Shown here: one piece after another, positions 7,834 through 18,583 of the stretch
How the letters are laid out: each line of letters starts with the position of its first letter
Numbering within the stretch: the stretch's first letter is position 1
Virus record (IMG/VR): IMGVR_UViG_3300033067_002000
Span: 1 to 59,244 of that record
Reading direction: 5' to 3' (one strand)
Origin: a virus
Lineage: Duplodnaviria > Caudoviricetes
DNA: 59,244 bases
Notes under the pieces: generated by a model
What the model was told of the DNA's origin: nothing
Seen by the model: the letters and a program-made list of their open reading frames with translations, nothing else
Database searches by the model: none
Translations under genes and position numbers: made by a program

Positions 7834-10800
7834 ATGCCCAACCTCACTCCGATCCTGACCGACGCCGCAACCCTCCGCGCCAAGATCCACGCCAAGGCCG
7901 CCTCCGCACTGAAAAGCGCGTTTCCCATCGACTTGAAGGGTCGCACGCTGGAACTGGAGGACGTGAAGGTCCACGCGCAGGAGTACGGCCCCAACGACCA
8001 GAAGCAGAAGCTGCTGACCGAGGGCTCGCTCAACGAGGCCATCAAGGGCACGCTCGTCCTGAAGGACTCGCAAGGCCGCACGATCAACCGCGCCGAGAAC
8101 TTCCTGCTCGGGCACCTGCCGTACCTGACCGAGCGTCACACGCTCATCGCCAACGGCAACGAGTATCAGCTGGCGAACCAGCTTCGCCGCAAGCCTGGGG
8201 TCTATGCCCAAAGGGCCGAGAACGGGGAACTCAAGTCCACGTTCAATCTTGGGCGAGGAAAGAACTTCGACCTGACCTTCAACGAGGGCAAGGGTACCTT
8301 CCACCTCGCGTACGGCACGAGCAACATCCCTCTTTACGCCGTACTGAACGGCCTCGGAGCAAAGCACGAGGACGTCAGCAAGGCGTGGGGTGCCGGCGTC
8401 GCGGCGGCGAACCGTGACGAACACGGACACCAGGTCGATGCCTCGATTTCGAAGCTCTACGGGAAGCTGGCACACCCATCAACGCTGAACATGGCGCTCG
8501 ATCACGAGGCGAAGCGCGCGGAGATCGAGAAGAGTTGGGCTAAGACGCAGCTCGATCCGGAAGTGACGCACGCGACGCTCGGGCACGGACATGATCGTGT
8601 GACGATCCCTGCGCTGCTGGCGGCGTCAAAGAAGCTCCTTCAAATTCACAAGGGCGAGACTGAGGTCGACGACGTCGATGCGCTCACATACAAAACCTTC
8701 CACGCCATCGACGATGTTCTCGCCGAACGCCTGGGCCTCGCGGCGCGCGATTGGAAGATGAAGGCGCGCTTCGCACTCAACGGCAAGACGAACATCCGTG
8801 AGGCATTGAAGCCTGCGCCGTTCTCGAACTCGATCAGGAAGTTCGTGACTACGAGCTCATTGACGGCGGTTCCGACGGGCATCAACCCCATGGAGATCCT
8901 CGACCACGCGATGAAAGTGACGTCGCTCGGCGAGGGAGGCATCCCGAGCGATCGAGCAATTCCGTACGACGCGCGCATGATCCACGACACACACTTCGGG
9001 GCGCTGGACCCGATTCGTACGCCCGAGTCCGGACACTCCGGCGTCGACATCCGCGCCACCATCGCCGCGCATCGTGACGACGCCGGCAACCTCTACACCG
9101 TCGTGCGAGACGTGAAGACCAACAAGGAGGTGTACCTCCGGGCGGGTGATCTCGCGAAGTACGTAGTGGCGTTTCCTCATCAGCCGCTCAGCGGGTTGGT
9201 GGATGCCTTTGAGCATGGGAAGCAAACTCGTGTACCCGCGAGCCGTGTGACCCACCAGGTCATCCACCTGAAGCACCTCTACTCGCCCGTAACGACGCTC
9301 ATCCCTGGCATCCACTCGATTCAGGGCAACCGCGCGATCATGGGTTCGAAGATGGGCACGCAAGCACTGCCTCTCGTCGAGCGCGAGGCTCCGCACGTGC
9401 AAGTCATGTCGCACCTGGCTGACGACGTGTCGTTCGAGCGTATCTACGGCTCGATGATCACACCGCGCGCGCCCGTCGCCGGCACGATCAAGAAGATCGA
9501 CGAGAACTGGATCTACATCCAGCCGCACACCAAGAAGATGGGCGAGAAGACGGCGGCCGAAGCCCTCGTGAAGGTGCCGTACCAGAATCACTTCCCGTTC
9601 CCTTCGAAGACCTACTTGCACCACGCCCTTCACGTGAAGGCCGGCGACAAGGTCGAAGAGGGCGAGAACATGGGTGAGTCCAACTTCACACGCAAGGGTA
9701 CCCTCGCGCTCGGAAAGAACCTGCTCGTCGGGTACCTGCCGTACTACGGCTTCAACTCCAACGATGCCGTAGTCATTTCCGACGCTGCTTCGAAGAAGCT
9801 CACTAGCGAGCACATGTACCGGGAGGTCTATCCGCTTTCGACCGGCTTGGAGATCAACAAGGCCAAGCACCGGATGTACGTCGGCGCGAAGTACACCGTG
9901 TCGCAGTACGCACAGCTCGGCGAAGATGGCGTCGTGAAGAAGGGGGCGAAGGTGCACCCGAAGGACATTCTCGTCGCTGGCATGATGAAGCAGCAGATCA
10001 CAGGCACCGATGCGATGCTGGGTAGGATTTCCAAGGCGTTGTCGAGTCCGTACAAGGATGTGGCGTTGACGTGGGAGCACGGGACTCAGGGCGAAGTTAT
10101 TGACGTCGTAAAGTCTGGAGGGCAGATCGCGATCCTGGTGAAAACGCTTGAGCGTATGCAGATCGGCGACAAGCTCTGCTACGCCGAGGGTACCGACGTG
10201 CTCACCGAGACGGGCTGGAAGCCGATCCAGGACGTGTTATTGACCGAACGTGTGGCCATTCTCGACGGGGACGAGCTCAAGTACGACTACCCATCCGCGA
10301 CACACAAGTACGCAACGGGCGGGCGCATGTACTCGCTGGAGACGCAGCAGGTTGATCTGCTGGTGTCCGAGACGCACAACATGTACGTCAAGCGCCGCTC
10401 CGGCAAAGCCTTCGAGCTCATCCCGGCCAAGAGCGTTTGGAAGGAGCGCGTGCGCTACCGCAAGGACGCCAACTGGACAGGGGTGCCCGCACAGCCTGTG
10501 ATCTTCCCTGCAATGCAAGTCGTGGCGGGCCGGCACGGGCACGGGACGCGTGAGATGCCCGCGTTCTCTATGGCGGCGGCGACGTACGCCATGTTGCTTG
10601 GGATGTTCTTGTCGGAAGGGAATTGTGTCGATCAAATCGACAGCGGTTCGTATGGGATCGACATCACACAGATCAAGGAACCGAATCGGGCAATGCTTCT
10701 GGACGCTCTAACGGCGGCGGGGCTCAAGTTTTGTGAGGCGAGTCACCACACAAAGGTTCGGATCTACTCCAAGCAGCTCTTGGAACACTTCAAGCAGTTT

Positions 10801-13800
10801 GGATTGTCCGAAGACAAGTACATCCCGAACTTCGTGTTCACATGGGATCGCGAGACACTCAAGATCCTGTTCAAGTGGCTGATGTGGGGCGACGGCAACG
10901 CGTTGGACGGGCGGTCCGTGGCGTACACCACGACGTCCCTACGTTTGGCTGACGACGTTCAACGGCTTCTGCTGCACATCGGCTACGCCGGCAACATCAA
11001 GTCGAGCCACAAGCCTGTGCAGACCATCAAGGGTCGTACGTCGCACAACTGCCTGCGCCGTTACGACGTTCGCACCATCACGACGAAGCTCCAGCCCGAG
11101 GTCAATCACGGGCACACCAAGACGCAATCGGGTCAGACGGAATCGTGGATCCCGGACTACCAGGCGCCCATCTACGGCCTGACGGTTCCTGGCGGCGTCA
11201 TCTACGTACGGCGCAACGGCAAGTCCGTGTGGTCCGGCAACAGTGGGCGCTACGGCAACAAGGGCGTCGTCGCCAAGATCGTCCCCGACCACGAGATGAT
11301 CCGTGACGCCGAGGGTCGTCCTATCGACTTGCTCCTCACGTCGGCGGGCGTTGTCTCACGCATCAACCCCATGCAGGTGATCGAGACCGCCCTCGGCAAG
11401 GTCGCCGAGAAGACCGGCAAGCCGATCCTCTTCGACAATGCGGCCGGGCACAACGCCGAGGCGTGGGCGCAGAAGCTGCTCAACGAGCACAACATCAAGG
11501 ACAAGGAGCACCTCTACGACCCCGTCTTGAAGCGGCACATCAAGGGCTCCGACGGCAACGGCGTCCTTGTCGGCCGTCAGTACATCTACAAGCTCTTCAA
11601 GTCGACCGACACCAACTTCGCTGGGCACGGCGTGGGCCCGTACGACTTGAACGAGCAACCGCTCAAGACCGGGGGCGACGACTCCGCCAAGGGCCTCGGC
11701 AAGATGGAGTTCGACGCGCTCCTCGCACATAACGCCCGCAACTTCCTCCGCGACGCGGCCACAGTGCGCGGGCAGAAGTCCGAGGAGTTCTGGAAGGCTG
11801 TGCAGACCGGGATGCCGCTCCCGGCCGGCAAACCGTCGTTCGCGTACAACAAGTTCCTGGGCATGCTCGAAGGCGCCGGCATCCGCGTCGACAAGCGCGG
11901 ATCGAAGATCACGCTCATGCCGCTTACGGACAAGGACGTGCTCGCGCGCAGCACCGGCGCCATCGAGAACAACAAGACGTTGGCGGCGAAGAACCTCAAG
12001 CCGGAAGCTGGCGGCCTCTTCGATTTACGCCGTACTGGCGGCGCCAACGGCACTCTCTACTCGCACATCGACTTGCACGAGAAGATGCCGAGCCCTGTGT
12101 TCCAGGAGCCTGTTCGCCGCTTGCTTGGGCTCACGCAGGCGGAGTTCGACAAGCACCTCGGCGACAAGGGCGGCTCGTGGTTCCACTCCGAGCTCTCGAA
12201 GATCGACGTGACGAAAAAGATCGCCGAGCTGCGCGAGAAGATGAAGAAGGCTGGCGGCCCGGTGCTCAACGACTTGATCAAGCAGATCAAGTACCTGGAG
12301 ACGTTGAAGGCCCACAACCTCACGCCGCAGGACGCGTACATGGTGTCGAAGGTGCCGGTGGTGCCTCCGATCCTGCGCCCGATTCTGCCGATGCCCAACG
12401 ACCCGACGCAGATCATGGTGAGCGATCCGAACAAGCTCTATGCGCACTTGATGGACGCGAACCACACGCTCAAGAACACCGCGATCGAGAGTGACACGGC
12501 GAAGCACCGGCGCGAGCTGTTCGGCTCGATGGAGGCCTTGTACGGGACTGCGCTGCCTCTCGACCCGAAGCTGTCGCAACAGAAGACGAAGGGGTTCTTG
12601 GCGAACATCGCGGGTGTGGGGACGCCGAAGGGTGGGTTCTTCCAACGCAAGCTCATGCGCCGTAACCAAGACGTGTCAGGACGCGGTACGGCGGTACCAG
12701 ACGTGAACCTCGGCATGGACGAGATCGGCGTTCCCGAGGCCATGCTGTGGGGCATGCTCGACAAGTTCCTCGTCGCCCGGTTGGTGCGCAAGGGCTACAG
12801 CGGCCTGGACGCGCGCGAGCTCGTCAACAAGAAGACCCCTGCGGCGAAGCAGGCGATGATGGAGGAAGTGAAGGAGCGCCCCTTCATCTTCAACCGCGCC
12901 CCGACGCTGCACCGGTTCAGCGTGCTCGCTGCGTACGCGAAGCCGGTGCAGGGCAAGACCCTGCGCGTGAATCCGTTCGGGGAAAAGGGGCTAAATCTTG
13001 ATTATGACGGCGATTTCTCGATTAGTGCATTAACAGTATTGATCGACAGCGCTACCTCTGACGACGTGACCCGCAAGTGGGCGGCGTCGCAAACGGAGGT
13101 GCCTATGTCCGCGCGTTTCAAAGAGGTTGTCGGCGTCAAAAACGGAACGAGTGTCTACTTCTGTCACTTGGCTGATTTTCCTCGACACGAAGAAATCAGC
13201 AGCGTCAGCAACCACATCACATTCCACAAGGTTCCTGACGGCGTTGAGGTGCTCTCGTACGATGCCGCCACGGGGCGTATCATCGCCACGAAGCCCTCGT
13301 ACTGGTCGTTCCACAAACAGCGTGAAGTCGAAATCGCGACACTCATGTCCAAGCGCCAGATCATCAGCGACGACGACGAGCGCGCCGTTTATGGCTTGAA
13401 CGCCAATTTGGAAGAAGTGCGCGCTCGGCCATCAGAAGCGGTCGGCATTCATGTGCCGGTCGGTTTCGGATTCGAGGACCTCGGCGAAACGCTCACGCGT
13501 ATCGCGACGCCGCCCATCAACCGTAACAACGCATACGCGCTCAAGGAGTTCATCGAGCTCAACGAACGCACGGGGCGCGTGATCGGCACTTACGTGGGCG
13601 ATGGGTGGGTCTCGTACTTGCACGACAAGATCGTTGGTACGTGCCTCGCCAACGTAGCCCCTGAAGTCACCAAGCACTTCTATGCTGACCTTGAAGCCGA
13701 GTTCTTCGCTGAAATGCCTGGAACGTACCACCGCACCACCGAAGCCCTGACGCAGGGAAACTACGGCGAGAGTCAAAAGCACACGGTCAATTCGACAGAA

Positions 13801-14973
13801 CTCGGGCGCTGGTTAGCACCACTGATCGGGCGCGGGGCCGAGAACAAGCACCTGCCGCCTTGGTACTTGTTCACACCTCAAGCCTTCAGGGAAGGGCTGC
13901 TGGCCGGCTTGTTGGACACGGACGGGACAGTATCTTGCTCCAAGCCCACGACCAAAAAGTTGAACGGGCAATGGATGGTGAACTACAGCAGTACCAGTCT
14001 GCGTCTGTCGCAAGAATTGGTATGGTTGTGTCGCTCGTTGGGGATCCATGCGCACGTAGGTCCCACCAAGACCAAGGCAGGGGGGCCGGCTTGGCAAACC
14101 AACATCTCTACCGTGGATCTCACACGTGCAAACGTGCCGTGTGTCCACGCTGAGAAACGTGACGGGCTGTCGCGAATCAAGACCGAGGTCGCACAGGTGA
14201 GTGCCGCCAGTTCCGCTCTCGACATGATTCCTATCCCGGAGTTCATCGCAGCCAAGCTCAGCCGGTGCTGTCCGACAAGTTCTACGCCGTATGTCCTTTT
14301 GCGGAAGGCGACGCGGACAAACGTCGTCAATCGCGCGCTGGCCGAACGGGTCTTGGCCAGCAACCCTACGCTGCGTGAAGATGTCAGCCCTCTCATGCAA
14401 CGCTGGTTGCAGATCGTCGACAATCACGCAGTTCGCTGGGACCGCGTCGTCTCCTACGAGAAAACCGGCATCGTCGAGGACGGCTACGACCTCACCGTCC
14501 CCGGCTACGAAACGTTCATGAACGTCGAAGGCGTGATCCTGTCCAACACGTTGCAGATCCACGCGCCCATCACCGCCGGCGGCATCGAGGACACCAAGAA
14601 GATGCTGCTCTCCAACCTCCTCTTGGCTGATCAGAGGAAGAACACGTTGATGGCGTTCCCTCAGCACGAAGCCATCATCGGGTTTACCCTTGCGGCGAAA
14701 GCTCAGGGTAAGGGTCCTGTGAAGCACTTCGCTACTGAGGAAGACGTGATCGCAGCCTACCGGCGCGGCGAGATTCCGATGGACGCCCTGGTGGAAATCG
14801 ACAACAAGAAGCACGCCGCCGACCCCGTCGACAACACCGACAACGACGAGTCCGACCCTGCCGAAGGCGATTTCGTCCCGGGGCACGCGAGCGTCTTAGC
14901 CTTGTATCCGCCCGGGAGTGTCACCGGCGAAGCGGATGAAGACGATGACGACGATGTTCCCGTTTCTGGCTGA
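7834..14973 (+). CDS. rpoBC: RNA polymerase beta fused to N-terminal half of beta', containing two inteins (about 1513 aa after splicing)
   Basis: Beta motifs HFGALDPIRTPE, GNRAIMGSKMGTQA, GDKL|SGRYGNKG and GLGKMEFDAL; beta' motifs VPVVPPILRP, FNRAPTLHR and NLDYDGD|TLQIHAP. Confidence 0.96.
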   Translation: MPNLTPILTDAATLRAKIHAKAASALKSAFPIDLKGRTLELEDVKVHAQEYGPNDQKQKLLTEGSLNEAIKGTLVLKDSQGRTINRAENFLLGHLPYLTERHTLIANGNEYQLANQLRRKPGVYAQRAENGELKSTFNLGRGKNFDLTFNEGKGTFHLAYGTSNIPLYAVLNGLGAKHEDVSKAWGAGVAAANRDEHGHQVDASISKLYGKLAHPSTLNMALDHEAKRAEIEKSWAKTQLDPEVTHATLGHGHDRVTIPALLAASKKLLQIHKGETEVDDVDALTYKTFHAIDDVLAERLGLAARDWKMKARFALNGKTNIREALKPAPFSNSIRKFVTTSSLTAVPTGINPMEILDHAMKVTSLGEGGIPSDRAIPYDARMIHDTHFGALDPIRTPESGHSGVDIRATIAAHRDDAGNLYTVVRDVKTNKEVYLRAGDLAKYVVAFPHQPLSGLVDAFEHGKQTRVPASRVTHQVIHLKHLYSPVTTLIPGIHSIQGNRAIMGSKMGTQALPLVEREAPHVQVMSHLADDVSFERIYGSMITPRAPVAGTIKKIDENWIYIQPHTKKMGEKTAAEALVKVPYQNHFPFPSKTYLHHALHVKAGDKVEEGENMGESNFTRKGTLALGKNLLVGYLPYYGFNSNDAVVISDAASKKLTSEHMYREVYPLSTGLEINKAKHRMYVGAKYTVSQYAQLGEDGVVKKGAKVHPKDILVAGMMKQQITGTDAMLGRISKALSSPYKDVALTWEHGTQGEVIDVVKSGGQIAILVKTLERMQIGDKLCYAEGTDVLTETGWKPIQDVLLTERVAILDGDELKYDYPSATHKYATGGRMYSLETQQVDLLVSETHNMYVKRRSGKAFELIPAKSVWKERVRYRKDANWTGVPAQPVIFPAMQVVAGRHGHGTREMPAFSMAAATYAMLLGMFLSEGNCVDQIDSGSYGIDITQIKEPNRAMLLDALTAAGLKFCEASHHTKVRIYSKQLLEHFKQFGLSEDKYIPNFVFTWDRETLKILFKWLMWGDGNALDGRSVAYTTTSLRLADDVQRLLLHIGYAGNIKSSHKPVQTIKGRTSHNCLRRYDVRTITTKLQPEVNHGHTKTQSGQTESWIPDYQAPIYGLTVPGGVIYVRRNGKSVWSGNSGRYGNKGVVAKIVPDHEMIRDAEGRPIDLLLTSAGVVSRINPMQVIETALGKVAEKTGKPILFDNAAGHNAEAWAQKLLNEHNIKDKEHLYDPVLKRHIKGSDGNGVLVGRQYIYKLFKSTDTNFAGHGVGPYDLNEQPLKTGGDDSAKGLGKMEFDALLAHNARNFLRDAATVRGQKSEEFWKAVQTGMPLPAGKPSFAYNKFLGMLEGAGIRVDKRGSKITLMPLTDKDVLARSTGAIENNKTLAAKNLKPEAGGLFDLRRTGGANGTLYSHIDLHEKMPSPVFQEPVRRLLGLTQAEFDKHLGDKGGSWFHSELSKIDVTKKIAELREKMKKAGGPVLNDLIKQIKYLETLKAHNLTPQDAYMVSKVPVVPPILRPILPMPNDPTQIMVSDPNKLYAHLMDANHTLKNTAIESDTAKHRRELFGSMEALYGTALPLDPKLSQQKTKGFLANIAGVGTPKGGFFQRKLMRRNQDVSGRGTAVPDVNLGMDEIGVPEAMLWGMLDKFLVARLVRKGYSGLDARELVNKKTPAAKQAMMEEVKERPFIFNRAPTLHRFSVLAAYAKPVQGKTLRVNPFGEKGLNLDYDGDFSISALTVLIDSATSDDVTRKWAASQTEVPMSARFKEVVGVKNGTSVYFCHLADFPRHEEISSVSNHITFHKVPDGVEVLSYDAATGRIIATKPSYWSFHKQREVEIATLMSKRQIISDDDERAVYGLNANLEEVRARPSEAVGIHVPVGFGFEDLGETLTRIATPPINRNNAYALKEFIELNERTGRVIGTYVGDGWVSYLHDKIVGTCLANVAPEVTKHFYADLEAEFFAEMPGTYHRTTEALTQGNYGESQKHTVNSTELGRWLAPLIGRGAENKHLPPWYLFTPQAFREGLLAGLLDTDGTVSCSKPTTKKLNGQWMVNYSSTSLRLSQELVWLCRSLGIHAHVGPTKTKAGGPAWQTNISTVDLTRANVPCVHAEKRDGLSRIKTEVAQVSAASSALDMIPIPEFIAAKLSRCCPTSSTPYVLLRKATRTNVVNRALAERVLASNPTLREDVSPLMQRWLQIVDNHAVRWDRVVSYEKTGIVEDGYDLTVPGYETFMNVEGVILSNTLQIHAPITAGGIEDTKKMLLSNLLLADQRKNTLMAFPQHEAIIGFTLAAKAQGKGPVKHFATEEDVIAAYRRGEIPMDALVEIDNKKHAADPVDNTDNDESDPAEGDFVPGHASVLALYPPGSVTGEADEDDDDDVPVSG
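10177..11241 (+). mobile_element. Intein 1 (355 aa) with LAGLIDADG homing endonuclease, in the beta GDKL/SGRYGNKG motif
   Basis: Starts CYAEGTDVLT and ends WSGN before Ser; LLGMFLSEG and WLMWGDG motifs; removal restores the conserved beta motif. Confidence 0.92.
13015..14547 (+). mobile_element. Intein 2 (511 aa), atypical N-terminus, LAGLIDADG endonuclease, directly after catalytic DYDGD
   Basis: Ends GYDLTVPGYETF...ILSN before Thr; IGTYVGDG and LAGLLDTDG motifs; removal gives NLDYDGDTLQIHAP, matching NADFDGDQMAVHVP. Confidence 0.88.
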
Positions 14974-15496
14974 GCTGATTGAGAAGACGGGGTCGGACTA
15001 CGACCAACCCGCCCCGCCCGAGCAACCGGCACCCCCGGAGCAGCCGGCGCCGCCCGAACAAGCCCCGGAACCCGAGCAACCCTCTCCCTATCTGGAAATC
15101 CTTCGACGGCTTCTGACCAAGAAGACGACGTTGATGCTCGCGTACATTTCCTACGGCGACCAGCTCCAAGCGTTCTTCCGCGACGGGATCTACGAGCACT
15201 TCCAAGAGCACCTCAAAGAAGAGCGGGCTGCCGTCTACGAAATCCACAAGAAGATCGTGGCGCTCGGCGGCGGTGCTGGCGTGCAGATCGAGCCCGTGCC
15301 CCCAGTGCCGCTCGACAACCCGCGCTTCATCTTCGGCATCATCCAGTCTTTGGAGATGCAGGCTGTCGAGCTCTGGACCGAGCTCTTCAACGCTACCAAG
15401 AAGGACGTGCCTCTGAACGGCCTCGCGCAAGACAACGCACGCATCGATCAAGCACACGCGGACGACATGGCGCGCTACCTTCGGGCGGTACCATGA
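14954..15496 (+). CDS. Ferritin-like (Dps/bacterioferritin fold) protein with N-terminal leader and QPAPPE repeats
   Basis: YEHFQEHLKEE...KIVALGG, LEMQAVELW and DQAHADDM helical-bundle pattern; start uncertain (14936/14945/14954). Confidence 0.65.
   Translation: MFPFLAELIEKTGSDYDQPAPPEQPAPPEQPAPPEQAPEPEQPSPYLEILRRLLTKKTTLMLAYISYGDQLQAFFRDGIYEHFQEHLKEERAAVYEIHKKIVALGGGAGVQIEPVPPVPLDNPRFIFGIIQSLEMQAVELWTELFNATKKDVPLNGLAQDNARIDQAHADDMARYLRAVP
15005..15082 (+). repeat. In-frame 18-bp repeat (QPAPPE x3 plus variant)
   Basis: Translation QPAPPEQPAPPEQPAPPEQAPEPEQP. Confidence 0.8.
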
Positions 15497-16780: not shown

Positions 16781-18583
16781 GTGCCCGTCACCGTCGGATC
16801 CATCCTCATCAACTCCGTGATGCCGAAGGGCTACAAGCTCAACGGCCCCATCACCAATCGTGATCTTCATGACCATGTCGTCGGCTTGGCGAAGTCCGAC
16901 CCTGCACAGTATGTGCAGACGATCATGGCGTTGAAGCGGCGCGGCGACGAGATCGCGACGCTCGAAGGTGTGTCCGTCGGCCTTGAGGACATCCGGCCGG
17001 ATTACGCGGCGCGAGACAAGATCATGGTGCCTGCCATCAAGGCGCTCGCGGAAGCCAAGACTGAGAAGGCCCGCGAGAAAGTCATCATGGACACGCAGGC
17101 TGCGATCACCGCGCACACCAAGCAGCACCCAGGGTCCATGACCCACATGGCGCTGTCGGGCGCGCGCGGCAACATCGGGCAACTCATGAAGATCGTGGCT
17201 ACGCCGTTGGCGTCGGTGCACCCAAGGAAGGGCGTCAGCCCCGAGTTCATTGACCGCTCGTACTCCGAGGGCCTTACCCCGGCGCAGTACTGGCGCGCGG
17301 GACCCGAAGTGCGAGCCAACGAAGTGAAGGCCCGTATCTCGGTTTCTGAGCCTGGCGAGATGGCCAAGGTCCTCGTCAACAACATGATCGGCCAGGTCAT
17401 TACGTCGTCCGACTGCGGAACTTTCAACGGCGTAAAGACCAGCCTCGATGACGGCCACATCCTCGACCGGTACACCCAGGCGGATCACGGGCTGCCAAGG
17501 AATACCCTCGTCACTCCTCAACTGATTCAACAACTCAAGCACAAGGGCAACATCGCAACGTTGTTGGTGCGCTCTCCCATGACGTGCGCCGCGACGCAAG
17601 GCGTCTGCCAGCACTGCCAAGGGCTCAACGAGAAGGGGCACATGCACGCCGTCGGCATCACCGTCGGCGTTCGCGCGGCCCAAGCCATGGCAGAGCCGCT
17701 CACGCAGATGGCGCTCTCGTCGCGTCACGGCACGTTGATGGTCAAGGAGAAGGCGGAAGCCCCTTCAGGCTTGAAGGGTGTGCGGCAGCTCTTGGAGATC
17801 CCGAAGGCATTCAAGCACGAAGCCGTACTCGCACCGCATGCCGGTCAGGTCGGTCAGATCGAAAAGGCACCTCAAGGCGGCCACTACATCCACGTCGGTG
17901 CAAAGAAGCTGTACGCGGGCCCGAATCTCACGGTCACGGCGCACGAAGGGCAGACGGTCGAGCACGGCGACACGCTCACCGATGGTGTTCCGCACCCGGC
18001 CAAGATCGTGGCGGCCAAAGGCATCGGCAAGGGCCGCGCGCACTTCGTCGATGCGATGTACGCGCTGTACAAGGGCGAGGGTGTCGACCTCGACAAGCGG
18101 CACTTGGAGCTGCTCGCCAAGAGCGAGATCAATCACGTGCGGCTGCTTGAAAGTGACCCGGATCACCCCGAGCTTTTGAAGGGTGACACGATCAACTACA
18201 ACCAGTTTCGCGATGCGTACGTACATGACGTCGCACGTTTGCCCGTGGCAGATGCCATCGGCAAACGCCTGGGGGCCGAGGTTCTCCATCACACCGTCGG
18301 GACGTTGATCACACCGAACGTCGCGAAGGAGCTTCAGGGCCACGGCGTGCACGAAGTGAGCACGGCGCGACGCATGCCCCAGGTCGAGTTCGTCATGAAG
18401 CCCTTCGCGATGAACCCGCTTTTGGAGCGCGACTGGATGGCGCGTTTGTCGCACCGCTACCTGAAGAACACCTTGCAGGAGGCCGCGCAGTTCGGCGAGA
18501 CCTCTGACATCCATGGCACGCACGCAGTGCCAGCGTATGCTTTCGGAGCGGAATTGCGACACGGACCCAATGGAACCTTCTAG
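16781..18583 (+). CDS. rpoC: RNA polymerase beta' C-terminal half
   Basis: SGARGN, SYSEGL, DCGT, RSPMTC...GVCQHC Zn site, AAQAMAEPLTQMALSSRHG trigger loop, DKRHLE. Confidence 0.95.
   Translation: MPVTVGSILINSVMPKGYKLNGPITNRDLHDHVVGLAKSDPAQYVQTIMALKRRGDEIATLEGVSVGLEDIRPDYAARDKIMVPAIKALAEAKTEKAREKVIMDTQAAITAHTKQHPGSMTHMALSGARGNIGQLMKIVATPLASVHPRKGVSPEFIDRSYSEGLTPAQYWRAGPEVRANEVKARISVSEPGEMAKVLVNNMIGQVITSSDCGTFNGVKTSLDDGHILDRYTQADHGLPRNTLVTPQLIQQLKHKGNIATLLVRSPMTCAATQGVCQHCQGLNEKGHMHAVGITVGVRAAQAMAEPLTQMALSSRHGTLMVKEKAEAPSGLKGVRQLLEIPKAFKHEAVLAPHAGQVGQIEKAPQGGHYIHVGAKKLYAGPNLTVTAHEGQTVEHGDTLTDGVPHPAKIVAAKGIGKGRAHFVDAMYALYKGEGVDLDKRHLELLAKSEINHVRLLESDPDHPELLKGDTINYNQFRDAYVHDVARLPVADAIGKRLGAEVLHHTVGTLITPNVAKELQGHGVHEVSTARRMPQVEFVMKPFAMNPLLERDWMARLSHRYLKNTLQEAAQFGETSDIHGTHAVPAYAFGAELRHGPNGTF

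Follow-up and report, generated by a model that had tools for sequence, protein, structure and literature searches.

To our knowledge, only three mechanistic classes of intein are recognised. The element considered here is an intein-like insert of 511 residues in a phage RNA polymerase gene of the IMG/VR virus record IMGVR_UViG_3300033067_002000 (Duplodnaviria; Caudoviricetes), of which a stretch of 59,244 bases, hereafter the window, was analysed. The insert follows directly on the catalytic aspartates of the polymerase, begins with Phe and has no His in block B. A previous reading of the DNA letters (the sequence-only reading) had described it as a non-canonical intein. This classification was upheld, as the full sequence definitions of classes 1, 2 and 3 do not apply to the insert and its odd residues recur throughout a family. 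On sequence grounds, the element is probably a working intein, and we tentatively favour a splicing mechanism in which the host Asp at position -1 would form an anhydride that is then converted to an ester with Thr+1.

Inteins of class 3 are characterised in PMC2807308 by a triplet consisting of Trp at B:12, Cys at F:4 and Thr at G:5 (WCT), and class 2 inteins by the presence of neither a nucleophile at the first residue nor this triplet. The known class 2 inteins, according to PMC4031507, are all KlbA orthologues. They have Ala1, Cys+1 and Ser at G:6, they need Thr B:7 and His B:10, and their Asp at F:4 is thought to activate the +1 nucleophile. The same paper ranks His B:10 above every other intein residue in conservation and knows of only two inteins that lack it, one of them a pseudogene. 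The Tko CDC21-1 intein works without this His, a Lys compensating for it (PMC4031507). For inteins using oxyesters, a further conserved motif has been described, NX, whose His lies by the scissile bond, close enough to residue 1 for a hydrogen bond and in the vicinity of the Asp at F:4 (PMC10189870).

The limits of the insert were established by comparison with relatives of the host protein. A search with host residues 1300-1727 returned 982 matches at E<=0.001, of which 120 were listed; these listed matches, together with the window protein and the homologues from Salmonella phage Arash and Vibrio phage D69, made up a set of 122 proteins. In 104 of them no insert was found, and D(Y/F)DGD was followed directly by (T/A)-x-Q-x-H (Thr in 91, Ala in 13). 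The same kind of insert after DYDGD or DFDGD was carried by 14 proteins, the window protein among them, and a different insert occupied this place in the other four. Since both flanks are joined directly in all 104 insert-free relatives, the insert must extend from Phe1 to Asn511, with Thr at +1. It corresponds to host residues 1728-2238 and reads DYDGD/FSISAL...EGVILSN/TLQIH, the slashes marking the junctions. The coordinates 13015..14547, the start at Phe1 and the restored DYDGD-TLQIH junction, all proposed by the sequence-only reading, were thus recovered exactly. Furthermore, a profile including the flanks aligned to bacterial beta' on both sides of the insert (NADFDGDQ/MAVHVP), which shows that the insert separates the third magnesium-binding Asp from the residue after it. 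Two general features of inteins are therefore present: an in-frame insert exactly interrupts a conserved host motif, and its C-terminal Asn, Asp or Gln, here Asn511, is followed by Cys, Ser or Thr, here Thr.

Alternatively, the junction might lie at Ser2 or Ser4, either of which would then be a class 1 nucleophile, or the element might be removed from the RNA. When read from Ser2, block A (S-I-S-A-L-T-V-L, our own reading of the sequence) does resemble C-x-x-x-x-T-x-V. However, the direct joining of the flanks in all 104 insert-free relatives allows no additional residue: a junction at Ser2 or Ser4 would add residues found in 0/104 of them. In the family of this intein, moreover, position 2 is mostly Gln (57/102) and position 4 is Asn in 34, Gly in 33 and Ser in 20 of 102 members, so that neither is conserved as a nucleophile. 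Displacement of both junctions by one residue to the right would restore the length, but the insert would then end with Asn-Thr before Leu, which fits no intein chemistry. As to RNA, an Rfam scan of positions 12400-15200 at E<=1 gave no match to an intron or to any other family, and the insert is an in-frame protein with a confidently predicted intein fold. A shifted junction or removal at the RNA level is thus extremely improbable. Contigs of four sequencing runs were also compared with positions 12700-14900, and no joint across 13015-14547, i.e. no insert-free allele, was detected in them. One of these contigs spans the whole of 12700-14900 and may be the source of the record, and two joints inside or after the insert originated from diverged relatives.

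The fold of the intein was modelled with AlphaFold from a 27-row alignment (mean predicted local distance difference test (pLDDT) score 80.3). The best Foldseek match of the model in the PDB was the TliVMA intein (7qss, E 1.9e-19, template modelling (TM) score 0.68 on the target). The other top matches were also intein homing endonucleases, namely PI-PkoII (2cw7), PI-PfuI (1dq3) and PI-SceI, and the endonuclease fold additionally matched I-DmoI. The insert is thus predicted to adopt the HINT splicing fold, and the resemblance to inteins goes far beyond chance. By sequence, Pfam detected LAGLIDADG_3 in the insert (2e-06, 28.4 bits, above the cut-off of 22.5) and Intein_splicing below its cut-off (4.9e-05, 23.6 bits, cut-off 35.8), and the two LAGLIDADG motifs of the putative homing endonuclease each contain an acidic residue (Asp196 and Asp303). 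Comparison of the whole intein with solved inteins by sequence gave only weak C-terminal matches to DnaB mini-inteins (Ssp DnaB, 1mi8, E 0.033), and a profile of the N-terminal half built from 14 sequences gave 0 matches at E<=10 against PDB chains. The particular residues on which the first description had relied were all found in place. The block B region, QIISDDDERAVYG, is devoid of His, block F, EDGYDLTVPGYETFMN, has Asp and not Cys at F:4, and the intein ends with Ser-Asn/Thr, without a penultimate His.

These residues were then compared with those of the known classes. Class 1 calls for Cys, Ser or Thr at residue 1 and for His at B:10. Here residue 1 is Phe (Cys or Ser in 6/97 members of the family), and the block B stretch S-D-D-D-E-R places Asp121 or Glu122 at B:10, depending on the register. 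With class 2, represented by Methanocaldococcus jannaschii KlbA, the window family has in common the absence of Cys, Ser or Thr at residue 1 and of the WCT triplet, the Ser at G:6 before Asn (Ser510; Ser in 91/97) and the Asp at F:4. However, the KlbA inteins, orthologues that all occur in a single archaeal protein, start with Ala1, are followed by Cys+1 and depend on Thr B:7 paired with His B:10, whereas the window family has a nearly free residue 1 (Phe in the window copy, Ala in 15/97), Thr+1 in 97/97, D-D-D-x-R with no His to provide such activation, and a phage RNA polymerase as host. With class 3, represented by the DnaB intein of mycobacteriophage Bethlehem, it shares a phage origin, Thr or Ser at +1 and a residue 1 that is no nucleophile and varies together with an altered block B, and each of the two groups has a residue of its own near B:12. 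In contrast to class 3, which keeps the WCT triplet and His B:10, the window intein has Arg123 or Ala124 at B:12, an invariant Asp492 at F:4 (136/136), Leu509 at G:5 and no His B:10.

Three further systems resemble the window intein in part. The PolII intein of archaeal PolD (DP2) belongs to class 1. It lies between N962 and C963 of an acidic motif, its insertion point being likewise directly after the third residue of that motif, but a Cys directly follows the -1 Asn (PMC7708050); the likeness to the window intein is one of site. The cysteine-less class 1 inteins with Ser1 and with Ser or Thr at +1 described in PMC10189870 (PolB16 OarG, Psp Pol-1 and Mvu-M7 Pol-3) share with the window intein an oxygen chemistry at +1 and an invariant His that precedes block B by about 20 residues. 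The PolB16 intein can do without the block B His, and its split is atypical in that the N fragment is very short. These inteins differ by their Ser1 nucleophile, their retained block B His and the Arg or Lys preceding the NX His, none of which is found in the window intein (PMC10189870). From its spacing alone, His100 may be the counterpart of the NX His. Lastly, Tko CDC21-1 lacks His B:10 but keeps its first-residue nucleophile and is a single case, whereas in the window family both are missing family-wide. Thr484 was also considered as an internal nucleophile. This residue is family-specific relative to the sister group described below, yet in the Ssp DnaB mini-intein, which is of class 1, it is matched by the Thr of a T-G turn, and its role was read as structural.

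In order to delineate the family, the intein was searched exhaustively against 1.84 billion cluster representatives, of which 833 were matched at E<=0.001; 478 of these clusters remained at E<=1e-10 and 245 at E<=1e-30. A hidden Markov model built from 12 members identified 136 full-length copies among the collected proteins. Asp(-1), Pro56, His100, Asp492 and Gly506 were invariant in 136/136 copies; Asp121 was present in 135, Asp119, Arg123 and Asn511 in 133 each, Asp120 in 124 and Thr+1 in 134. Position 98 was Ser in 125 copies and Thr in 11, the terminal residue was Asn and rarely Asp, and the endonuclease motifs were conserved across the 136 members. The first 30 residues were poorly conserved. 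The window copy has all the conserved family residues, both LAGLIDADG acidic residues and Lys278, and is intact and probably still mobile. Judged from these alignments, the odd residues are a conserved norm of the family and not the decay of a single copy. In addition, Thr+1 was present in 99/99 insert-bearing alleles, compared with 91 Thr and 13 Ala in the 104 insert-free alleles (p 1.7e-4, kinship ignored), and looks to be required by the insert. The family is large and apparently undescribed: a literature search that covered few subscription journals found no description of a family of RNA polymerase inteins without a first-residue nucleophile.

This conservation bears on the possibility that the insert does not splice at all. 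In that case, C-terminal cleavage alone might break the polymerase behind DYDGD, the intein staying attached, or an inactive copy of the polymerase might tolerate the insert. The weak conservation of the first 30 residues and the existence of split genes (L022 and L026, see below) would agree with this, as would the pseudogene among the two known inteins without the most conserved residue, His B:10 (PMC4031507). In addition, the motif DFNGD in 4/102 hosts and DYDGN in four relatives indicate that these phages tolerate some change in the catalytic motif. However, the active centre should be obstructed by a domain of 511 residues that parts the third catalytic Asp from the following strand of the double-psi barrel, the junction residues are under strong purifying selection in 136 members, and Thr+1 is fixed in the insert-bearing alleles only. 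The intact endonuclease motifs point to continuing mobility, and hence to a need for harmlessness. The same gene also contains an ordinary class 1 intein, and the phage polymerase therefore already depends on protein splicing. Moreover, the Arash homologue, gp206, is reported as the most abundantly detected protein in purified virions (PMC10585845), for which reason an inactivating insert would be costly. The absence of splicing was thus considered unlikely.

A sister family of inteins occupies the same DxDGD site and has kept the classical residues, which makes it the natural comparison for the changes that made the switch. It was recognised among IMG/VR loci and weaker database matches, and comprises the loci L015-L019, L021 and L027, the proteins P0247 and P0257-P0259, and also P0007, P0008, P0064 and P0098. 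It is homologous to the window intein over the whole length (24-31% identity for the loci compared) and shares with it the insertion site, the D-F-P and S-x-H motifs and the endonuclease. Covariation was studied on 116 rows matched by regular expression, of which 8 were duplicates; the 108 distinct rows consisted of 97 with D-D-D-x-R, 9 of the sister type with S-x-D-H in block B and 2 others, which were D-D-D-like variants.

In the D-D-D-x-R group, residue 1 was Gln in 30 members, Ala in 15, Asp in 12, Glu in 11, Leu in 5, Asn in 4, Phe, Cys, Ser, Gly and Lys in 3 each, Met and Tyr in 2 each and His in 1, so that Cys or Ser occurred in 6/97, whereas all nine sister members had Cys (5), Ser (2) or Thr (2). 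The block B His position held no His in the 97, compared with His in 7 of the 9 sister members, the exceptions being Lys in L016 and Ala (S-R-D-A). This Ala motif was seen in P0247 and L027, one Ala being counted among the nine. Loss of the residue-1 nucleophile was thus linked to loss of the block B His (Fisher p 1.5e-9, uncorrected for shared ancestry). The C-terminal end had changed as well: the last residue was Asn in 96/97 against Asp in 9/9, and the penultimate one Ser in 91/97 against Gln (5), Tyr (3) and Trp (1). At +1, Thr was found in 97/97, compared with Thr in 5, Ser in 3 and Cys in 1 of the sister members, and the -1 residue was Asp in both groups (97/97 and 9/9). In the alignment of the two families, the residues that changed with the switch were Asp119, Asp120, Arg123, Glu488, Glu499, Ser510 and Asn511, and the S-x-H pair and Asp492 were common to both. 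In block B the two families can be aligned in two registers one residue apart, which place either Asp121 or Pro/Glu122 at the former His, and neither choice gives a His.

Among 14 nucleophile-bearing relatives, four had Asn at -1, whereas the D-D-D-x-R group had Asp in 97/97 (p 1.7e-4, kinship ignored). These four (P0007, P0008, P0064 and P0098) read DYDGN/CF...VVWD/TLQVH, with Cys1 and a C-terminal Asp, and the third catalytic Asp is replaced by Asn. Their enzyme would accordingly read DYDGN after ordinary splicing.

The S-x-H pair suggests a route akin to class 3, in which Ser98, polarised by His100 and perhaps by Asp492, would attack the N-terminal junction, the ester branch then passing to Thr+1. 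Position 98 is always Ser or Thr (125 and 11 of 136) and His100 is invariant (136/136). Both residues are two positions apart in one predicted strand (model residues 106-120), which would put them on the same face, and the oxyester NX His described in PMC10189870 likewise lies within hydrogen-bond reach of residue 1, close to the F:4 Asp. However, S-x-H also occurs in the sister family, which keeps its nucleophile (Ser in 10, Thr in 4 and His in 10 of 14), and thus predates the switch, and no class 3 signature is present, since B:12 is not Trp, F:4 is Asp and G:5 is Leu. Such a route is quite improbable.

In the mechanism that we favour, the intein would build an acidic pocket around Asp(-1), formed by Asp119-121, Arg123, His100 and Asp492. 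First, the side chain of Asp(-1), the third catalytic Asp of DYDGD, would attack its own backbone carbonyl to form a cyclic anhydride, and the amino group of Phe1 would be released. Then the hydroxyl of Thr+1 would open the anhydride at the alpha carbonyl, which would yield the usual branched ester. Cyclisation of Asn511 would release the intein, and the ester would finally shift to a peptide bond, giving DYDGD-TLQIH. Acid-catalysed cleavage of Asp-Xaa bonds through a cyclic anhydride is known, and for inteins flanked by Asp it has been described to accompany splicing as a side reaction (PMC7897204). In archaeal PolD, whose two-barrel core is homologous, the corresponding position may be occupied by Asn or Asp in a working enzyme and is directly followed by an intein (PMC7708050).

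A role of Asp(-1) was favoured because this residue is Asp in 97/97 members here, whereas Asn is tolerated in 4/14 nucleophile-bearing relatives and in PolD. The anhydride was favoured because Asp-Xaa cleavage of this type is known and because the switch exchanged His for carboxylates and an Arg; with an anhydride, the joint loss of the need for residue 1 and for His B:10 would be accounted for. The sequence-only reading had suggested direct attack by Thr+1 or assistance from the -1 Asp, and such a scheme fits both the covariation and the published side reaction. A broader proposal, which we hold to be doubtful although worth stating, is that the family constitutes a fourth mechanistic class, in which the host Asp(-1) cyclises to an anhydride in a pocket that the intein provides, acidic and possibly able to bind metal, and thereby starts the removal.

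Several observations weigh against the anhydride mechanism or against splicing itself. Polymerase function by itself already fixes Asp(-1), and the family sits at one homing site, so that the invariance of this residue is no proof of a splicing role; the four Asn(-1) relatives may form one clade, in which case the contrast may reflect a single event. The anhydride may also open at the wrong carbonyl, so that the active site is left with an isoaspartate, or may be hydrolysed, so that the chain is cleaved but not ligated, and in the work cited (PMC7897204) the reaction is an off-pathway cleavage. The Arth_1007 intein, which has no first-residue nucleophile and has Asp at F:4, is described as a pseudogene (PMC3196547). 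Furthermore, a tblastn search of the intein against 50,697 deposited phage records at E<=1e-8 gave 0 matches, and among the public sequencing runs none of RNA was listed for this DNA.

In addition, Ser at G:6 followed by Asn is equally a signature of class 2, in which the +1 residue attacks the amide directly (PMC4031507), and this favours a different route. Here Thr+1 would attack the Asp(-1)-Phe1 amide itself, the bond being activated by Asp119-121, Arg123, His100 and Asp492, and Asn511 cyclisation and the O-to-N shift would follow as usual. With neither a first-residue nucleophile nor the WCT triplet, the intein would come under the class 2 definition of PMC2807308. The Ser before Asn is found in all class 2 inteins treated in PMC4031507 and the F:4 Asp is kept, and the conservation of Ser510 (91/97), Thr+1 (97/97) and Asp492 (136/136) agrees with such a scheme. 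However, class 2 needs His B:10 and uses Cys+1 (PMC4031507), whereas here the His is absent and the weaker hydroxyl of Thr would have to act on an unactivated amide. The known class 2 inteins are moreover all KlbA orthologues with Ala1, a residue found in 15/97 members of the present family. Direct attack by Thr+1 was therefore judged rather unlikely, and the anhydride mechanism was retained as the favoured one.

The family also differs in how its members are encoded. In the window, the intein belongs to one continuous open reading frame (ORF), in which a Shine-Dalgarno sequence precedes the codon of Met31. The window and 13 contiguous IMG/VR relatives, chosen for their D-D-D block and for the lack of an upstream stop, were compared at this place. 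A start codon was present at the Met31 column in 11/14 sequences, and a Shine-Dalgarno core was found 4-17 nucleotides (nt) upstream of it in 10/14, against 11% at random in-frame positions (binomial p 1.9e-7, kinship ignored). Among 17 IMG/VR loci with the block B pattern, two were split (L022:2960-3017 and L026:2810-2960). Their upstream gene ends 24 (L026) or 53 (L022) residues past DFDGD, and their downstream gene begins at the equivalent of Met31 behind AAGGAG and keeps D-x-D-x-R and L-S-N/T. Similarly, 8 of 26 short relatives in the alignment, and P0249, begin at Met31 or at most 2 columns from it, in a set that is biased since it was chosen for shortness.

Judged from these gene arrangements, the family spans contiguous and naturally split forms, the latter with a short N fragment. 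As the halves are in separate genes in L022 and L026, only trans-splicing could join the polymerase there. From the Met31 start, the intein body and the C-extein are probably also made separately in the contiguous copy, as in the split relatives. In contiguous copies, the internal start may serve to express the endonuclease on its own, or it may have been left over from an ancestor that was split.

Hundreds of sequence clusters thus lack both the block B His and the first-residue nucleophile and are nevertheless under strong selection. If these inteins splice, the HINT fold would be shown to activate a peptide bond in a way not described before. They would also show how an intein can live directly beside the catalytic aspartates of a polymerase, and would provide cysteine-free, histidine-poor inteins for protein engineering, some of them naturally split with a very short N fragment. 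If the Asp(-1) class is true, an active-site residue of the polymerase would start the removal of the element that interrupts the polymerase. The family would then be chemically tied to sites ending in Asp, it might be switched by magnesium or pH, and it would include both contiguous and naturally split forms.

The host is a virion-type RNA polymerase of an uncultured Arash-like phage. In the host protein, Pfam matched RNA_pol_Rpb2_6 (1e-35) and RNA_pol_Rpb1_2 (1.2e-13), with beta in front and beta' behind. The nearest cultured relatives, Arash gp206 (1525 residues) and its D69 homologue (1527 residues), are both 32% identical to it across the beta' part and both are without inserts. The features of the locus are collected in the table.

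Table. Features of the fused RNA polymerase gene, its inteins and the second polymerase gene (positions in the window; aa, amino acids)
Feature	Position	Strand	Remarks
Fused RNA polymerase beta and N-terminal beta'	7834..14973	+	ORF and translation; 2379 aa with two inteins, ~1513 aa without
Intein 1 of the same gene, canonical class 1	10177-11241	+	355 aa; Cys1, block B S-E-T-H, Gly-Asn/Ser end, LAGLIDADG motifs
End of N-extein, DYDGD, catalytic magnesium-binding aspartate motif	13000..13014	+	-1 residue is the third Asp
Intein, HINT splicing domain with inserted LAGLIDADG homing endonuclease	13015..14547	+	511 aa, Phe1-Asn511
Variable N-terminal segment, residues 1-30	13015..13104	+	Predicted first beta-strand (model residues 15-21, intein 5-11), helix, low-confidence linker
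Internal Shine-Dalgarno sequence and start	13095-13107	+	GGAGG 13095-13099, 5-nt spacer, ATG 13105-13107 (Met31)
W-S-F-H, residues 97-100	13303..13314	+	His100 invariant, Ser98 always Ser/Thr; candidate equivalent of the motif NX His
Block B region QIISDDDERAVYG	13357..13395	+	Asp119-Asp120-Asp121-x-Arg123 instead of T-x-x-H; no His
First LAGLIDADG motif GRVIGTYVGDGW	13573..13608	+	Acidic Asp196 (VGDGW)
Conserved Lys278 (ENKHLP)	13840-13857	+	
Second LAGLIDADG motif FREGLLAGLLDTDG	13885..13926	+	Acidic Asp303 (LLDTDG)
Block F EDGYDLTVPGYETFMN	14476..14523	+	Asp492 at F:4 (invariant), Glu499 where many inteins have His; aligned to 1mi8
Block G, EGVILSN, plus Thr+1	14527..14550	+	Ser510 G:6, Asn511 G:7, Thr +1
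C-extein, TLQIHAPIT..., plus stop codon	14548..14973	+	141 aa
Second RNA polymerase gene, presumably the remainder of beta'	16781-18583	+	600 aa; phrog_25354 2.6e-31, phrog_3015 2.6e-08

The second polymerase gene lies 1.8 kb downstream of the fused gene, and the same two-gene layout is seen in Arash (gp206 and gp216). Elsewhere in the window, whose record has an estimated completeness of 34%, there are genes for a helicase, an exonuclease, a ParB-like protein and a baseplate hub. The site of intein 1 is the beta-subunit motif GDKL/./GRYGNKG, which reads GDKLAGRYGNKG in the insert-free relative P0016.

Among the polymerases carrying the nucleophile-less intein, the four hosts with DFNGD, which has Asn for the second catalytic Asp, include locus L025. 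Inserts in the polymerase family occur at about five recurrent sites (residues ~400, 570, 784, 823 and 1374 of the reference P0005). Some relatives carry three or four inserts, and lengths reach 2,682 residues among the listed polymerase relatives and 4,739 residues in the intein-family search.

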